Of a stretch of DNA of 55,227 nucleotides, positions 45,904-51,875 are shown piece after piece. Under the pieces are notes generated by a model, which worked only from the letters and a program-made list of their open reading frames with translations, searched no databases and had not been told where the DNA came from. This DNA comes from an uncultured Rikenella sp. Its GTDB lineage: Bacteria > Bacteroidota > Bacteroidia > Bacteroidales > VadinHA17. The position numbers and the translations under genes were made by a program. Numbering within the stretch: position 1 is the first letter of the stretch; every line of letters starts with the position of its first letter. The DNA lies in the NCBI GenBank assembly GCA_964579645.1, contig CAZOHL010000005.1:1-55227 (forward strand), read 5' to 3'.

Positions 45904-46938
45904 ATGAAAAAGATGAAAGCACTTGTCAAGGCACAGGCTGCCAAAGGATTATGGATGCAGGAAGTGCCTGTTCCGGAACCGGGTTACAATGATGTGATAA
46001 TAAAGGTCAGGAAATCAGCCATCTGCGGCACTGACCTTCATATATACGAATGGAATGAATGGGCACAGAAGACGATAAAGGTACCCATGACAATAGGACA
46101 CGAGTATATGGGATATGTTGAAAATGCGGGCCCGGGTGTCACAAACGTAAAGGTGGGCGACAGGGTAACCGGTGAGGGGCACCTGTTCTGCGGCACATGC
46201 CGTAACTGCCGTCGCGGCCGCGAACATGTCTGCGAGAATACAGTCGGGATAGGAGTTCACATCGACGGCTCCTTCGCAGAGTATGTCAAGGTGCCGGCAC
46301 GCAATGTCGTGCTTCTTGATCCGAGGATACCAGACGACTGGGCAGCCATCATGGATCCCTTCGGTAACGCGACACACACGGCGCTTGCCTTTCCCCTGCT
46401 GGGTGAGGATGTGCTTATCACAGGATCAGGGTTGATAGGGAGCATGGCAGTCGCCATCGCCAGGTTCGCAGGTGCGCGCAATGTTGTGGCAACCGACCTG
46501 AGCGACTACCGCCTCGAGCTGGCAAAAAAGATGGGAGCCACAATGGTTGTCAATCCGAAAAAGGGAGAGAAAATCAAGGATGTCCTTGAACCACTTCATA
46601 TGAAAGGCTTCGACGTGGGACTTGAGATGTCAGGCTCCCCTGCAGCCTTCCGTGAGATGATCGCAAACATGTACAACGGTTCCAACATCGCCCTGCTGGG
46701 CATTCTCCCCTCGAACTTCGAGGTGCCATGGAGTGACATCATTTTCAAGGCACTGACGCTTAAGGGCATCTATGGCCGCGAGATGTGGGAGACCTGGTAT
46801 AAAATGCAGATGATGATAATCGGCGGCATTAACCTTGACCCGATAATCACCCACCGGTTCCATATCGATGAGTTTCAGAAGGGTTTTGATATAATGGAGG
46901 AAGGCAACTGCGGCAAGGTTATACTGAGCTGGGACTGA
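45904..46938 (+). CDS. tdh: L-threonine 3-dehydrogenase (zinc MDR family)
   Basis: [53 protein letters not shown], and C-terminus [11 protein letters not shown]. Confidence 0.95.
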
Positions 46939-47020
46939 CCGGAAACATGAGAAAAGTCAGTTTTGCAGCTTGGCAGTATCGAAAATAATTCTATCTTACA
47001 TGTCATTGTTACGATAACAT

Positions 47021-48733
47021 ATGGCATTGAACCCTGAACACAAATCCTATGAAGAGCTGTCGGCCAACTTCACCTGGGCCGTAGCTGAAAAAGAGCTTGA
47101 ATATAAGAACGGTGATGTAATCAACATCGGGTGGTACTGCAGCGACAGGATCTGCCTGAAAGGCAATGGATCAAAGGTTGCACTCATCTACGAAGGGTTC
47201 GGGGGAATAAGCAGGCGGTTCACCTATAATGACATCCGTATTGCAGGCAACACAATCGGTTCCTTCCTCAGGGGTATTGGCATTACAGAGGGCGACAGGG
47301 TATGCCTCTTCATGGACAGGATCCCCGAACTGTATCTCTCATTCCTTGGCATTCTTAAAATGGGGGCCATTGTCCAGCCTCTCTTTTCCGCCTTCGGCGA
47401 AGAATCCCTGTTTGTAAGACTTGAAAACGCGGGAACCAGGGCTATCATTACCCAGAAGAAACATCTCGGTAAAGTCAGGAAGATACGCCAGCAACTGCCT
47501 GACCTTGAGTTTGTGATAATCGTCGATGAAATGAAGCAGGCAGACCTCGCCCCCGGCGAAGTGCTGTTCAGCCTTGACAGGGCGGAGCCGGTGGAACAGT
47601 TTGATATCTGCCCTACCCATGCCGAGACCCCTTCTGTGCTGCATTATACTTCAGGAACCACAGGGCAGCCCAAGGGAGTAAAACATGTCCACTATTCGCT
47701 TATATCACAATACCTTACAACAAAGTGGGTCCTTGACCTGCGTGATGATGACATTTACTGGTGTACGGCAGACCCGGGATGGGTTACCGGCACATCGTAC
47801 GGTATCATAGGTCCGTGGAGCCTCGGGGTGACACAATGCGTTCTTGACATCGGTTTCTCGGCTCAGGCATGGTACCGCTTTGCCGAAAAGAACAGGATTA
47901 CAGTATGGTACTCCGCTCCCACCGCAATAAGGTCACTTATGAAGGCCGGAGATGAGATAGTGAAGTCATTTGATCTTTCATCGCTGCGCCACCTGGCAAG
48001 CGTGGGCGAACCCCTCAACTCCGAAGCCGTGATATGGTCTGAGAAAGTGTTCGGTAAACCGTTCCATGACACCTTCTGGCAGACAGAGACCGGATCAATA
48101 ATGATAACCAACTTCCCCGGGATGAAGATCAAGCCAGGGTCAATGGGCAGAACCTTTCCCGGGATAACCGGAACGGTTCTTGATCCGGTCACATACCAGC
48201 CTTATCCGGAACACGGAAGGGCCGGTCTCATAGCTTTCAGACCCGGATGGCCGGCATTGATGCGTGCCTACTGGAACAATGAGGAAAAATACAGGGAAAA
48301 ATTTGTCAACGGATGGTACCTTTCGGGCGACAGGGCAAGCATTGACAGTGAGGGCTATTACTGGTTCATCGGGCGGGATGATGATGTAATAAATACAGGC
48401 GGACATCTCGTGAGCCCGTTTGAGGTGGAATCCGCACTCCTTGAACATCCTGCCGTGGCCGAATCTGCTGTTACATCCAAACCTGATGAGATAAATATGG
48501 AGGTGGTCAAGGCATTCATTACCCTGAAGCCGGGCCATACACCCAACCCTGACCTTGAACTTGAGATCATGAACTTCATCAGGAAACGTCTTTCACCACT
48601 TGCCATGCCGCAGGCTGTGGAATTCATGGACAGGTTGCCGAAAACACGCAGCGGCAAGATAATGAGACGCGTCCTCCACGCCCGGGAATGGGGAGAGGAG
48701 ACAGGGGACCTCTCGACACTTGAAAACGACTGA
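47021..48733 (+). CDS. AMP-forming short-chain acyl ligase, Bacillus AcsA-type acetyl-CoA-synthetase homolog
   Basis: LHYTSGTTGQPKGVKH, DIYWCTADPGWVTGTSYG, WQTETG, LPKTRSGKIMRRVL. The C-terminus GDLSTLEND parallels B. subtilis AcsA end to end as I recall it. Confidence 0.85.
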   Translation: MALNPEHKSYEELSANFTWAVAEKELEYKNGDVINIGWYCSDRICLKGNGSKVALIYEGFGGISRRFTYNDIRIAGNTIGSFLRGIGITEGDRVCLFMDRIPELYLSFLGILKMGAIVQPLFSAFGEESLFVRLENAGTRAIITQKKHLGKVRKIRQQLPDLEFVIIVDEMKQADLAPGEVLFSLDRAEPVEQFDICPTHAETPSVLHYTSGTTGQPKGVKHVHYSLISQYLTTKWVLDLRDDDIYWCTADPGWVTGTSYGIIGPWSLGVTQCVLDIGFSAQAWYRFAEKNRITVWYSAPTAIRSLMKAGDEIVKSFDLSSLRHLASVGEPLNSEAVIWSEKVFGKPFHDTFWQTETGSIMITNFPGMKIKPGSMGRTFPGITGTVLDPVTYQPYPEHGRAGLIAFRPGWPALMRAYWNNEEKYREKFVNGWYLSGDRASIDSEGYYWFIGRDDDVINTGGHLVSPFEVESALLEHPAVAESAVTSKPDEINMEVVKAFITLKPGHTPNPDLELEIMNFIRKRLSPLAMPQAVEFMDRLPKTRSGKIMRRVLHAREWGEETGDLSTLEND

Positions 48734-48774
48734 TAATTAACTATATAAAAACACTAATTTTTAATACACTTTTT

Positions 48775-49038
48775 ATGGAAGAAATGAATATCAATGAAAT
48801 GAAGGAGCTGGTGCTGAAGTATGTCGTCAAAGAATACATTGATGATGACGATGTAAAGATCACCTATGAAACTCCTCTCATTTCAAGCGGTTATGTAGAC
48901 TCTTTTTCTATGGTCTCTCTTCTTGTATTTCTTGAGAACAGATTCAAGATCAAGATTCCCCCTTCAAAGGCCACACCGGAGGCTTTTGACAGTGTGAACA
49001 GCATCGTTGCACTGGTCAACCAGTACCTGAAACAGTAA
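48775..49038 (+). CDS. Stand-alone acyl/aminoacyl carrier protein, DltC-like
   Basis: 87 aa. SGYVDSFSMVSLLVFLENRFKIKIP parallels DltC LLDSFGTVELLLAIENRFDILVP, where the DS serine is the phosphopantetheine attachment site. Confidence 0.7.
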   Translation: MEEMNINEMKELVLKYVVKEYIDDDDVKITYETPLISSGYVDSFSMVSLLVFLENRFKIKIPPSKATPEAFDSVNSIVALVNQYLKQ

Positions 49039-49049
49039 ACAAAAACCCA

Positions 49050-50297
49050 ATGAGTTTCCCCGAGAGTATCAGAAGTATCTATCAGGCACAGCTTGCAGAG
49101 ATACACAATGCCGGCATTTTCAAGGAGGAAAGATTCATTCACAGCGCACAGTCGGCCGACATAGAAGTTGAGTTCCCTGCAGGTTCGGACCTGAAGAAGG
49201 TAATTAATATGTGTGCCAACAATTACCTTGGCCTCTCCAGCCATCCGGAGGTGATAAAAGCTGCTCACGACGGACTTGAGTCGAGGGGTTACGGCATGTC
49301 ATCCGTAAGATTTATCTGCGGCACACAGGACATCCACCGTGAGCTTGAAAACAGGGTTACTGATTTCCTTGGCACCGAGGACACGATACTGTTTCCGTCA
49401 TGCATGGATGCCAATGCCGGCGTATTTGAAGCCATACTCACCAGTGAGGATATTATGATTTCAGACCGTCTTGTCCATGCTTCAATAATAGACGGTATGA
49501 GGCTCTGCAGTGCACAGCATGACACCTTCAAGCATTCGAGCATGGAGCACCTGGAGGAGAAGCTGCAGCTGCATGCAGATAAGAGGCTGAAGCTGGTGAT
49601 CACTGACGGTGTCTTCTCAATGGACGGTGATACGGCAATGCTTGACAGAATGGTGGATCTGTGTGACAAATACGGAGCCATGCTGCTGGTCGACGACTCC
49701 CACGCCACAGGTTTCATAGGGAAAACAGGAAGGGGAACTCATGAATACTGCGGAGTTTTTGGGAAGATTGACATAATCACCACAACTTTCGGTAAAGCTC
49801 TCGGAGGTGCCTCCGGCGGTTGTGTTTCAGGGCGAAAGGAAATTGTGGATATGTGCAGGCAGAAGGCACGTCCCTACCTCTTCTCAAACACAATTGCCCC
49901 GGTGATAGTCTCGGGGGTCCTGAAGGTATTTGACATTCTCTCCGGCAGCACCGAAAGGCGCGATAAGCTCGAAAAGAATGCAGCATACTGGCGGAAGGGA
50001 CTGACAGAGGCCGGGTTCATTCTTAAGGAGGGTAATACCCCCATCGTGCCTGTGATGCTTTTCAACGCGAAGCTTTCTCAGGATTTCTCGAAAGACCTTT
50101 ACCGCGAGGGGATCTATGCAATCGGCTTCTTCTTCCCGGTTGTGCCAAACGGCCAGGCACGGATACGCACACAGATTTCTGCCGGCCACGAAATACATCA
50201 CCTTGACCGTGCACTTGAAGCATTCATAAGGGTGGGAAAGAAACACGGTATTCTGGGCCTCACCCACGACCAGATTGTTGAGAAATACGGGCTGTGA
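49050..50297 (+). CDS. PLP-dependent alpha-oxoamine synthase, divergent Kbl paralog
   Basis: MCANNYLGL, GMSSVRFICGTQDIHRELE, VHASIIDG, VDDSHATGF and FGKALGGASGG (catalytic Lys present). Has a short C-terminal extension relative to Kbl. Confidence 0.85.
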   Translation: MSFPESIRSIYQAQLAEIHNAGIFKEERFIHSAQSADIEVEFPAGSDLKKVINMCANNYLGLSSHPEVIKAAHDGLESRGYGMSSVRFICGTQDIHRELENRVTDFLGTEDTILFPSCMDANAGVFEAILTSEDIMISDRLVHASIIDGMRLCSAQHDTFKHSSMEHLEEKLQLHADKRLKLVITDGVFSMDGDTAMLDRMVDLCDKYGAMLLVDDSHATGFIGKTGRGTHEYCGVFGKIDIITTTFGKALGGASGGCVSGRKEIVDMCRQKARPYLFSNTIAPVIVSGVLKVFDILSGSTERRDKLEKNAAYWRKGLTEAGFILKEGNTPIVPVMLFNAKLSQDFSKDLYREGIYAIGFFFPVVPNGQARIRTQISAGHEIHHLDRALEAFIRVGKKHGILGLTHDQIVEKYGL

Positions 50298-50437
50298 CTC
50301 CCGCAGAACCGACACCCGGCTCCGGCAGTCCGTTTTGGTTTTTATTTCATTGTTCCCTGTAATTGATGATTATCATCATTGGATAATGACGGTAAAAGCC
50401 CATCTTTGCAGTCGTTTTACCTAATTATTTCCTTAAA

Positions 50438-51628
50438 ATGTACGACAGTTACAGGGATCATCTTGTGGTCCAGCTTGAGGAGATCAGGGAGGCTGGTCTC
50501 TATAAGAACGAGCGTGTCATTGTTTCGCCCCAGGGGGCAGAGATAACCCTGAATACAGGGCAGAAGGTGCTTAACTTCTGTGCCAATAACTACCTGGGCC
50601 TCTCGGCGAACAAAAAGCTTGTTGAAGCGGCAAAGGAAGCGCTTGATACTCACGGCTACGGCATGTCTTCGGTCCGTTTCATATGCGGAACGGGTGACCT
50701 TCACAAGGAGCTGGAGAAAAAGATAGCCGGTTTCTTCGGTACCGAAGACACAATCCTTTACGCTGCATGTTTCGATGCCAACGGCGGCGTGTTTGAACCC
50801 CTGCTCACGAGTGATGATGCAATCATCAGTGACTCACTGAACCATGCCTCAATAATTGATGGGGTAAGGCTGTGCAAGGCGAACCGATACAGGTACGAAA
50901 ACGCTGACATGGAAGACCTTGAGGCGCAGCTACAGCAGGCACAGGAACACCGTTTCAGGCTTATAGTGACTGACGGTGTCTTCTCAATGGACGGCAATGT
51001 TGCTCCGCTCGGCAAAATTTACGAGCTGGCAAACAGGTACAATGCAATGGTGATGGTCGATGAATCGCACTCCGCAGGTGTGGTGGGAGAGACCGGCCGC
51101 GGCGTCACCGAGCTTTACGATCTCCGGGGAAAAATAGAGATCATTACCGGCACACTCGGGAAAGCCTTCGGCGGCGCCATCGGTGGCTTCACAACAGGAA
51201 AGAAGGAGATAATCGAGATGCTGCGCCAGCGTTCGAGGCCATACCTATTCTCCAACTCCATCCCTCCCCTTGTGGCCGCGGCCGGCCTGAAGATGGTGGA
51301 AATGATGACCGAAACCAACGAACTCCAGGACAAACTCCATCACAACACCAGGTATTTCATGGAGAGAATGCTGAAGGCAGGTTTTGACATCAAGCCTACA
51401 CAGTCAGCCATATGCGCCGTGATGCTCTATGATGCCAAACTCTCGCAGGAAATGGCCGCAAGGCTCCTGAAGGAAGGCATCTACGTGATCGGGTTTTACT
51501 ATCCTGTGGTTCCAAAAGGTCAGGCCCGCATCAGGGTCCAGCTCTCGGCTGCCCACGAAACAGAACATCTTGACAAGGCTATTGCTGCATTTACAAAGGT
51601 CGGAAAAGACCTTGGTGTATTGAAATAA
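50438..51628 (+). CDS. kbl: Glycine C-acetyltransferase (2-amino-3-ketobutyrate CoA ligase)
   Basis: Collinear with E. coli Kbl: FCANNYLGL, SVRFICGTGDLHKELE, CFDANGGVFE, NHASIIDGVRLCKA, TLGKAFGG, YPVVPKGQARIRVQ. Confidence 0.9.
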   Translation: MYDSYRDHLVVQLEEIREAGLYKNERVIVSPQGAEITLNTGQKVLNFCANNYLGLSANKKLVEAAKEALDTHGYGMSSVRFICGTGDLHKELEKKIAGFFGTEDTILYAACFDANGGVFEPLLTSDDAIISDSLNHASIIDGVRLCKANRYRYENADMEDLEAQLQQAQEHRFRLIVTDGVFSMDGNVAPLGKIYELANRYNAMVMVDESHSAGVVGETGRGVTELYDLRGKIEIITGTLGKAFGGAIGGFTTGKKEIIEMLRQRSRPYLFSNSIPPLVAAAGLKMVEMMTETNELQDKLHHNTRYFMERMLKAGFDIKPTQSAICAVMLYDAKLSQEMAARLLKEGIYVIGFYYPVVPKGQARIRVQLSAAHETEHLDKAIAAFTKVGKDLGVLK

Positions 51629-51724: not shown

Positions 51725-51732
51725 TATTTTTG
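51725..51732 (+). promoter_or_regulatory. Candidate -7 box TAttTTTG for the ilv leader transcript
   Basis: tatttttg lies 19 nt upstream of the leader ATG at 51751. Confidence 0.45.
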
Positions 51733-51750
51733 CCAACCATAAGTAGGACT

Positions 51751-51807
51751 ATGTACCACACATCACTATTTATTGCCCTGTTTATTATCATCGCCATAAG
51801 CGGATGA
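51751..51807 (+). CDS. Ile-rich leader peptide MYHTSLFIALFIIIAISG (ilv attenuation leader candidate)
   Basis: 18 codons, 5 Ile including the run ATT ATC ATC .. ATA. The stop TGA abuts the first arm of the alternative hairpins. Confidence 0.6.
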   Translation: MYHTSLFIALFIIIAISG

Positions 51808-51875
51808 CCGGGGAGTAGTATATAGTGAGGATAATATTATATAAAAGCTTCCCGGAAAACCGGGGAGCTTTTTTT
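51808..51875 (+). promoter_or_regulatory. Attenuator: alternative antiterminator/terminator structure upstream of ilvD
   Basis: ccggggag (51808-15) and ccggggag (51860-67) can each pair with cttcccgg (51848-55). The distal pairing extends to aaagcttcccgg-aaaa-ccggggagcttt plus a T run. Confidence 0.6.

Follow-up and report, generated by a model that had tools for sequence, protein, structure and literature searches.

A candidate carrier-protein-dependent version of the Kbl reaction encoded between tdh and kbl in an uncultured Bacteroidales genome

Threonine dehydrogenase (Tdh) and glycine C-acetyltransferase (Kbl) convert threonine to glycine by way of 2-amino-3-ketobutyrate, and cleavage is the thermodynamically favored direction of the Kbl reaction. 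To our knowledge, Kbl-type enzymes are regarded as strictly coenzyme A (CoA) dependent and AcsA-type ligases as CoA ligases. In the Caulobacter ceramide pathway, an ANL acyl-ACP synthetase charges a dedicated acyl carrier protein (ACP), the alpha-oxoamine synthase Spt condenses the acyl group with an amino acid, and the reductase CerR acts on the 3-keto group. In SxtA, from saxitoxin synthesis, an AONS-type domain joins an amino acid to a short acyl group that is bound to a carrier domain; SxtA is a fused, polyketide synthase-like multidomain protein that uses arginine and decarboxylates. The ceramide pathway is mentioned in a paper on SulA, the cysteate acyl-ACP transferase of Alistipes finegoldii, which prefers acyl-ACP over acyl-CoA (PMC9304779), and SxtA is named as an alpha-oxoamine synthase homologue in another, where these enzymes are C-C bond-forming biocatalysts of interest, limited by their need for acyl-CoA (PMC11906848). 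Here, we describe a five-gene block (positions 45904-51628) in a 55-kb stretch of DNA (the window) from an uncultured Rikenella sp., in which an AcsA-type ligase, a small carrier protein, and a second Kbl-type enzyme, which we name AOS2, are encoded between tdh and a canonical kbl. With a probability of roughly 0.55, we propose that this ligase-carrier-AOS2 triad would perform a carrier-protein-dependent version of the Kbl reaction.

The five-gene block and its proteins

The open reading frame (ORF) list confirms the five same-strand genes, the intergenic gaps of 82, 41, 11, and 140 nt, and the sequence motifs that the original prediction had quoted. The genes are as follows.

45904-46938, plus strand: tdh, Zn-dependent L-threonine 3-dehydrogenase, 344 aa (NF003808, TIGR00692, Pfam ADH_N and ADH_zinc_N)
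47021-48733, plus strand: AcsA-type adenylate-forming ligase, 570 aa, putative acetate:carrier-protein ligase (PRK04319)
48775-49038, plus strand: DltC-like, type II peptidyl-carrier-like carrier protein, 87 aa (PF00550)
49050-50297, plus strand: AOS2, Kbl-type alpha-oxoamine synthase paralog, 415 aa (TIGR01822)
50438-51628, plus strand: canonical kbl, glycine C-acetyltransferase (2-amino-3-ketobutyrate CoA ligase), 396 aa (TIGR01822)

Profile hidden Markov models, to which the family of the paralog had been left, place AOS2 with Kbl (TIGR01822, 575 bits; cut-off, 493) and not with BioF, Spt, ALAS, or CqsA. BioF, ALAS, and CqsA-type identities were rejected at 358 bits (cut-off, 426), 255 bits (339), and 184 bits (428), and Spt identity was rejected on three models, at about 305 bits (640), 277 bits (500), and 233 bits (670). 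Because AOS2 is 51% identical to the neighboring kbl product and each is ~55% identical to Cupriavidus necator Kbl (PDB 7bxp), AOS2 is, judged by these identities, an old and separate Kbl lineage and no recent duplicate. The kbl product scores 679 bits against TIGR01822 (cut-off, 493), has 55% identity to the C. necator enzyme, and bears the Kbl-wide LNHASIIDGVRLCKANRYRY motif. The tdh product falls within two equivalog families, at 537 bits for NF003808 (cut-off, 380) and 479 bits for TIGR00692 (cut-off, 458).

Alignments with kbl and C. necator Kbl show that AOS2 keeps all catalytic, pyridoxal phosphate, and glycine-site residues of Kbl (NNYLG, HAS, SMDG, DxSH, TxxK, RIR), and it contains FGKALGG. 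After the catalytic His it lacks the motif LNHASIIDG[VI]RLCKA.R[YF]RY, which is near-universal both in 59 metagenomic Kbl loci and in the representatives of 50% clusters that gave us a wide range of Kbl sequences to scan for the motif, and reads LVHASIIDGMRLCSAQHDTFKH instead; its signature is LVHAS..DGMRLCSAQHDTFKH, against LNHAS..DGVRLCKA.RYRY in Kbl. A minority of the cluster representatives read LVHAS...DT[FY]KH, like AOS2, and identity alone gave no separation of AOS2 from Kbl in that search. AOS2 also reads SCMDANAG, where F and G of Kbl have become M and A, has V for N before the catalytic His, and adds a C-terminal tail of 15-20 residues (GILGLTHDQIVEKYGL). In total, 34 positions are fixed in AOS2 and differ from both Bacteroidales and Cupriavidus Kbl, 7 of them within the 19 residues after the catalytic His. 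In Rhodobacter capsulatus ALAS, with catalytic His142, the succinyl-CoA adenosyl site includes Ile149 and Lys156, and Lys156 bonds the ribose of succinyl-CoA (PMC4615937). By ungapped alignment, these residues correspond to His+7 and His+14, which are V and R in Kbl and M and H or Q in AOS2; by homology, the changes fit a loss of the CoA nucleotide pocket. This remodeled pocket and the gene context together suggest that the thioester partner of AOS2 may be the carrier protein rather than CoA.

The carrier protein scores 23.8 bits against PF00550 (cut-off, 20.8), which places it among carrier proteins, and holds a VDSFSMVSLLVFLENRF serine motif. The alignment at the Ser site that the original prediction turned on was recovered: Ser43 lines up with the Ser of DltC that bears phosphopantetheine (PDB 4bpg), and VDSFS matches LDSFG of DltC as well as the DS motifs of PltL and PigG. 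The nearest solved relatives, whose modified Ser corresponds to Ser43, are a 77-aa carrier (PDB 6cxt), DltC, PltL, PigG, and aminoacyl carrier proteins. The best NCBIfam matches, ACP_for_OlsHI (the ACP of the ornithine-lipid OlsHI system; 51 bits) and DltC (44 bits), are both below cut-off. Since a dedicated holo-ACP synthase (AcpS) gene abuts the cassette in several other lineages and phyla, the carrier is very likely phosphopantetheinylated, presumably at Ser43. Identity as a bona fide DltC was rejected (NF003464, 44 bits with a cut-off of 68; TIGR01688, 34 bits with a cut-off of 52), and so was a DltC system in the window: it has no DltA-type ligase, MBOAT (membrane-bound O-acyltransferase), or DltD, and only the sister loci have MBOAT/SGNH partners. 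The whole 55-kb window is devoid of genes for a phosphopantetheinyl transferase, an MBOAT, or a DltD-like protein.

The ligase belongs to the acetate--CoA ligase equivalog PRK04319 (NF003313; 746 bits; cut-off, 729), is 47% identical over its full length to Bacillus subtilis AcsA (PDB 9g79), and contains YTSGTTGQPKG, WCTADPGWVTG, and GDLSTLEND. CTADPGWVTG, SVGEPLN, and DT[FY]WQTETG, which studies of Salmonella and Methanothermobacter Acs place in the acetate pocket, are each present in 66 to 72 of 72 carrier-linked ligases counted over all clades. The window ligase reads DTFWQTETG and conserves PKTRSGKIMRR with its catalytic Lys. The pocket is small and hydrophobic (V, T, V, W), with no acidic residue for an ammonium group, and the best long-chain acyl-ligase model scores below cut-off. 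Acetate is most likely the acid loaded, because these pocket motifs are so widely kept, and the short acyl group that had been predicted is thereby supported. In every context class, wherever the contig reaches that far, the carrier gene lies directly downstream of the ligase gene; because of this placement, and of the AcpS gene upstream in several lineages, we infer that the carrier rather than CoA is the acceptor. An Spt-type, ACP-dependent sphingolipid module was rejected, since neither an Spt-clade synthase nor a long-chain ligase is present by score.

Distribution of the triad and its neighbors

A metagenomic scan with an AOS2 alignment gave 80 loci that cover the identity gap from AOS2-type to generic Kbl. 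In the AOS2 identity range (L106 and L107, which have a Kbl-type motif, were excluded), a carrier gene lies upstream in 17 of 17 cases, and it lies upstream in none of the 59 loci that bear the Kbl signature (N before the catalytic His, with R or K at His+14) and have sufficient upstream sequence. A ligase gene is also present in the AOS2-range loci wherever the contig extends far enough. The strict AOS2 motif (V or I before the catalytic His, with a non-basic residue at His+14) recovers 14 of the 17; in 13 the carrier gene is directly upstream, and in L103 it is ~1.1 kb upstream. The alpha-oxoamine synthase of L106 (4283-5524) is 67% identical to Acidobacteriota-type AOS2 and combines the AOS2 tail with a Kbl-type LNHAS...KAKRYIY; no ligase or carrier gene was found in the 4.3 kb upstream, and this enzyme may represent an evolutionary stage between Kbl and AOS2.

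Species-representative genomes were also scanned with the 87-aa carrier protein. At least 444 species match, and window proteins were aligned onto the best 80 loci, whose hosts are nearly all uncultured Bacteroidales or Rikenellaceae metagenome-assembled genomes (MAGs). About 50 of these 80 loci, in Bacteroidales MAG species, have the arrangement gltX / tdh-ligase-carrier-AOS2-kbl, often followed by ilvD, and its recurrence argues that the five-gene order is no chance event. In these tdh-type (class A) loci, tdh is the first gene of the conserved block, and gltX identity drops to about 65%. Roughly 20 of the 80 have the ligase-carrier pair but none of tdh, AOS2, and kbl. In L002 and L068, tdh, ligase, and carrier are kept but AOS2 is missing, and kbl comes straight after the carrier gene (L002, 8001-9546; L068, 8001-9453). 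The L002 proteins are otherwise 91-96% identical to those of the window. The gap in these two genomes reflects either a recent loss of AOS2 or an assembly artifact.

A second AOS2 clade was reached from the cluster representative P0257 (for fragments P0254 and P0360, too little surrounding sequence was available for use). Its members have 415-418 aa, 70-72% identity to window AOS2, 53-55% identity to kbl, and the same C-terminal tail, and their hosts, where named, are Acidobacteriota or Thermoanaerobaculia. L084-L089 encode AcpS-ligase-carrier-AOS2 and a 101-aa protein in abutting or overlapping genes, and no tdh, kbl, or MBOAT gene lies closer than 8 kb to the cassette; L090 and L091 encode DcuC-ligase-carrier-AOS2. 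Compared with the window proteins, those of the distant cassettes have identities of 64-66% (ligase), 47-51% (carrier), and 72% (AOS2). In L074, an AcpS gene and a short-chain dehydrogenase/reductase (SDR)-type L-threonine dehydrogenase gene precede the triad. L094, L096, L098, and L104 all encode SDR-type threonine dehydrogenase, ligase, carrier, AOS2, and AcpS (in L094, ~2 kb downstream of AOS2) in a gene order unlike that of the window, and L094, L098, and L104 have a canonical Kbl as well; L171 runs Kbl-AcpS-ligase up to the locus edge. The SDR-type enzymes of L074, L094, L096, L098, and L104 match solved SDR-type threonine dehydrogenases at E values of 1e-101 to 1e-128 and are non-homologous to the Zn-type tdh of Bacteroidales. 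Two non-homologous threonine dehydrogenases beside the triad thus tie it to 2-amino-3-ketobutyrate. Where the original prediction had AOS2 condensing the acyl group with glycine or another amino acid, they point to the ordinary Kbl substrates and not to another amino acid.

The comparative evidence supports the view that ligase, carrier, and AOS2 form a functional unit around a dedicated carrier, to which the Kbl paralog would be coupled, as first proposed: neighbors vary, and the triad, syntenic both within and across phyla, stays constant. Genes for tailoring, export, or a receptor are not among the conserved neighbors of the cassette. The 101-aa protein has no Pfam domain and always follows AOS2 in the Acidobacteriota-type cassettes (L084, 9279-9584; L085, 9282-9587; L086, 9271-9576; L081, 9293-9595; L092, from ~2970), with copies 46-67% identical; neither the window nor any Bacteroidales locus encodes it. 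In L090 and L091 (9554-14046), which belong to one lineage, the triad is followed by genes whose products have lysine-ketoglutarate reductase-like, saccharopine dehydrogenase, and aldehyde dehydrogenase domains and is preceded by C69 peptidase and DcuC-type transporter genes.

In ligase-carrier loci that lack tdh, AOS2, and kbl, the carrier gene is followed or flanked by genes for an MBOAT of ~490 aa and an SGNH/DltD-like protein of ~300 aa. The MBOAT matches PF03062, scores 150 bits against NCBIfam DltB (below cut-off), and ends in FIYFQF; its partner is membrane anchored and has GDS-like and DxxH blocks. This four-gene system is present in L035 (6252-10759), L041, L045, L056, L057, L059, L067, and L080, and the MBOAT gene is on the opposite strand in L038, L044, L047, and L053. 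Such a C-terminal hexapeptide is described as the Tyr motif that accepts the acyl group in DltX and PatA, and MBOAT-SGNH pathways other than Dlt are said to lack a carrier protein (PMC12148441). The ligase-carrier-MBOAT-SGNH set is probably a Dlt-like, carrier-dependent acylation system, one that would probably transfer acetyl groups; the original prediction had not noticed this second use of the pair. Mixed arrangements occur: L052 (3450-10878) has tdh, then opposite-strand SGNH-like and MBOAT genes, then ligase-carrier-AOS2-kbl; L068 is similar without AOS2; and L032 reads ligase-carrier-AOS2-MBOAT. Two MAGs hold a tdh-type module and a separate MBOAT-type module (L042 with L049; L061 with L034). 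Across the 80 homologues, carrier residues 33-81 are nearly invariant in tdh-type and MBOAT-type loci alike, and a comparison of the two classes for a partner-specific surface gave no class-specific residues. The invariance of this core in both locus types suggests that one carrier surface would serve both clients.

In the window, the block is flanked by gltX (minus strand) and the ilv operon, and its neighbors are housekeeping genes. No Rfam match to a riboswitch or leader 5' of tdh was found at the gathering score or at an E value of ≤1, and scans for sigma-70 and Bacteroidetes-type (TAnnTTTG) promoters gave match counts at chance level. A leader-peptide attenuator likely lies before ilvD (51725-51872). 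The region has a promoter-like motif, TATTTTTG, at 51725; a short ORF (51751-51807) encoding the Ile/Leu/Phe-rich MYHTSLFIALFIIIAISG; a 13-bp GC-rich hairpin with a T-run (51843-51872), which may double as the terminator of the kbl transcript; and weak coverage by Rfam Phe_leader and Thr_leader (E values of 0.013 to 0.4). A tRNA gene is truncated by the window start, and its remaining 3' portion occupies positions 1-53 (RF00005, 32.8 bits).

Proposed reaction and rival explanations

In the carrier-dependent Kbl reaction that we propose from sequence and context, the ligase would adenylate acetate and pass it to the phosphopantetheine thiol of the carrier, not to CoA, yielding acetyl-S-carrier. 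AOS2 would then interconvert acetyl-S-carrier plus glycine with 2-amino-3-ketobutyrate plus free carrier, and Tdh, a clear member of its family, would interconvert 2-amino-3-ketobutyrate and L-threonine, with canonical Kbl carrying out the CoA-dependent version next door. That these three steps occur jointly, whichever way they run, we regard as probable. The direction is the least secure part of the proposal, and our preference for condensation is tentative, at somewhat less than even odds. In that direction, an ATP-charged private carrier pool would push the unfavorable condensation of glycine with the acetyl group, while Tdh and NADH would pull the product to threonine. We favor condensation because such a push and pull is plausible for a Claisen condensation, because the ligase must run forward in the MBOAT loci, and because the stand-alone cassette encodes no other consumer of a charged carrier.

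Several observations weigh against the proposal. The ligase passes the NCBI equivalog cut-off for acetate--CoA ligase, and its sequence nowhere excludes CoA as the acceptor. AOS2 is dispensable in L002 and L068, since ligase and carrier stay there without it. Because an MBOAT gene adjoins the same ligase-carrier pair in L032, L052, and L068, the acetyl-carrier may have another main client. The adenosine-pocket argument depends on ungapped homology transfer from ALAS, and the enrichment of AOS2-specific positions after the catalytic His (Fisher p = 5e-4) concerns a segment picked after the data were seen. Were AOS2 to condense while the co-transcribed Kbl cleaves, the operon would merely turn acetate into acetyl-CoA, so some regulation, or another direction, must apply. 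Lastly, all cassette hosts are uncultured.

The most serious contender, to which we give a clearly smaller but real chance, is that the same proteins work in the opposite direction: Tdh would oxidize threonine, and AOS2 would cleave 2-amino-3-ketobutyrate with the carrier thiol to glycine and acetyl-S-carrier. The acetyl group would then pass to a carrier-dependent acyltransferase (MBOAT/SGNH) or, by reversal of the ligase, end as acetate plus ATP made from AMP and pyrophosphate. Such a route would correspond to the CoA-independent branch of threonine catabolism that the original prediction gave as its alternative. The cassette does lie inside the classical catabolic tdh-kbl pair, other lineages place it beside an SDR-type threonine dehydrogenase and canonical Kbl, and cleavage is known to be the downhill course; MBOAT/SGNH-like genes adjoin the ligase-carrier pair in L052 and L068, and an MBOAT gene does so in L032. 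However, the stand-alone AcpS-ligase-carrier-AOS2 cassettes encode no consumer of acetyl-carrier except the ligase, ANL ligases seldom reverse in vivo, and the route would duplicate Kbl and the usual steps from acetyl-CoA to acetate. Moreover, since two MAGs (L042/L049 and L061/L034) carry the tdh-type and MBOAT-type modules separately, the MBOAT needs no AOS2-linked copy of the pair.

It is unlikely that another short acid, such as propionate or glycolate, is loaded and that AOS2 makes a non-standard 2-amino-3-keto acid or an aminoketone, which would lead to a signal such as a pyrazine or, once reduced by Tdh, to an unusual beta-hydroxy amino acid. A private carrier would make most sense for an acid without a CoA-thioester pool, the SC[F to M]DAN[G to A]G and N-to-V changes in AOS2 are near the active site, and Tdh-derived aminoacetone feeds pyrazinone signals in Vibrio (PMC12930378). 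Yet the acetate-pocket residues are those of genuine AcsA and recur in 66 to 72 of 72 ligases, the association with two unrelated threonine dehydrogenases and with canonical Kbl favors 2-amino-3-ketobutyrate itself, and the surroundings lack conserved tailoring, export, or receptor genes; nothing points to the aminoketone or pyrazine-like product of the original prediction. We consider it more improbable still that the carrier is an aminoacyl carrier like DltC or AlmF, loaded by the ligase with glycine that Tdh, Kbl, and AOS2 supply and that an MBOAT/SGNH pair encoded elsewhere transfers to an envelope polymer. The solved relatives of the carrier (DltC, PltL, PigG, and aminoacyl carrier proteins), the sister loci with a DltB-like MBOAT (150 bits, below cut-off) and a DltD-like protein, and the glycine-producing character of Tdh plus Kbl would all suit such a role; an AcsA-type ligase whose small hydrophobic acetate pocket has no acidic residue for ammonium would not, and neither the correlation of the AOS2 signature with the carrier (17/17 versus 0/59) nor the stand-alone cassettes without MBOAT would be explained. 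The least credible account has no coupling at all: shared ancestry would have left a standard acetyl-CoA synthetase, a small ACP that is unrelated to it, and a superfluous Kbl copy side by side. Ligase and AOS2 pass the NCBI equivalog cut-offs for their standard names, and gene order in Bacteroidales could partly reflect vertical inheritance, but the triad is kept over phylum-level distances in differing neighborhoods, its genes abut or overlap, it is accompanied by a dedicated AcpS, and the AOS2 sequence signature correlates with context.

A wider and more speculative extension of the carrier-dependent Kbl reaction, which we hold to be doubtful, is that Bacteroidota, Acidobacteriota, and other uncultured lineages use the dedicated carrier, loaded with free acetate by the AcsA-type ligase, as an acetyl currency independent of CoA, with AOS2 and MBOAT/SGNH among at least two clients. 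A nearly fully acetylated pool, maintained at the cost of ATP, would drive the reverse of the Tdh/Kbl route to threonine from glycine and acetate, and the MBOAT/SGNH pair would acetylate an envelope polymer from the carrier, not from acetyl-CoA.

Comparison with known systems

We found no description in the literature of the ligase-carrier-AOS2 gene set with tdh/kbl. In public sources, AOS2 homologues, where named, appear simply as "glycine C-acetyltransferase," and NCBI models would name the ligase an acetate--CoA ligase. If the carrier-dependent Kbl reaction is real, a cross-phylum cassette would add a new substrate class to the Kbl and AcsA families, current names would be incomplete for many metagenomic genes, and the MBOAT/SGNH sister arrangement would join Dlt as the second bacterial MBOAT pathway to depend on a carrier. 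The AOS2 signature (V before the His, non-basic His+14, C-terminal tail) predicts carrier linkage and would offer a mutational handle on CoA-versus-carrier specificity in alpha-oxoamine synthases. The five proteins of the system are small and soluble, and in vitro reconstitution would be possible.

The Tdh-Kbl cleavage pathway (Escherichia coli kbl-tdh; C. necator Kbl, 7bxp) has the same chemistry and the same two enzymes that flank the triad here. In this locus, by contrast, a private carrier and an ATP-dependent loader accompany a second Kbl-type enzyme, in which the Kbl-wide N..K..RYRY segment is replaced and 15-20 residues are added at the C terminus. The ligase shares its acetate pocket and catalytic Lys motif with B. 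subtilis AcsA (9g79) and differs in having a carrier gene downstream and sometimes an AcpS gene upstream, the carrier being its putative acceptor. DltABCD resembles the locus in its carrier, and the sister loci add a DltB-like MBOAT with the FIYFQF end and a DltD-like SGNH protein; unlike DltABCD, the window has no MBOAT or DltD, its adenylase is AcsA-type and not DltA-type, and DltC models stay below cut-off.

The Caulobacter ceramide system, SulA, and SxtA all resemble the locus in logic, but none uses a synthase of the Kbl type, a loader of the AcsA type, or a carrier like DltC. With the Caulobacter ceramide genes, the locus would share a dedicated carrier charged by a ligase, an alpha-oxoamine synthase, and a dehydrogenase acting on a 3-keto group; it differs in the predicted C2 acyl group, the Kbl-type synthase, the AcsA-type ligase, and the DltC-like carrier, and the carboxylate would stay. 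Like SxtA, it would combine a carrier-held short acyl group with an amino acid, here by free-standing, Kbl-type proteins. [quoted passage not shown]

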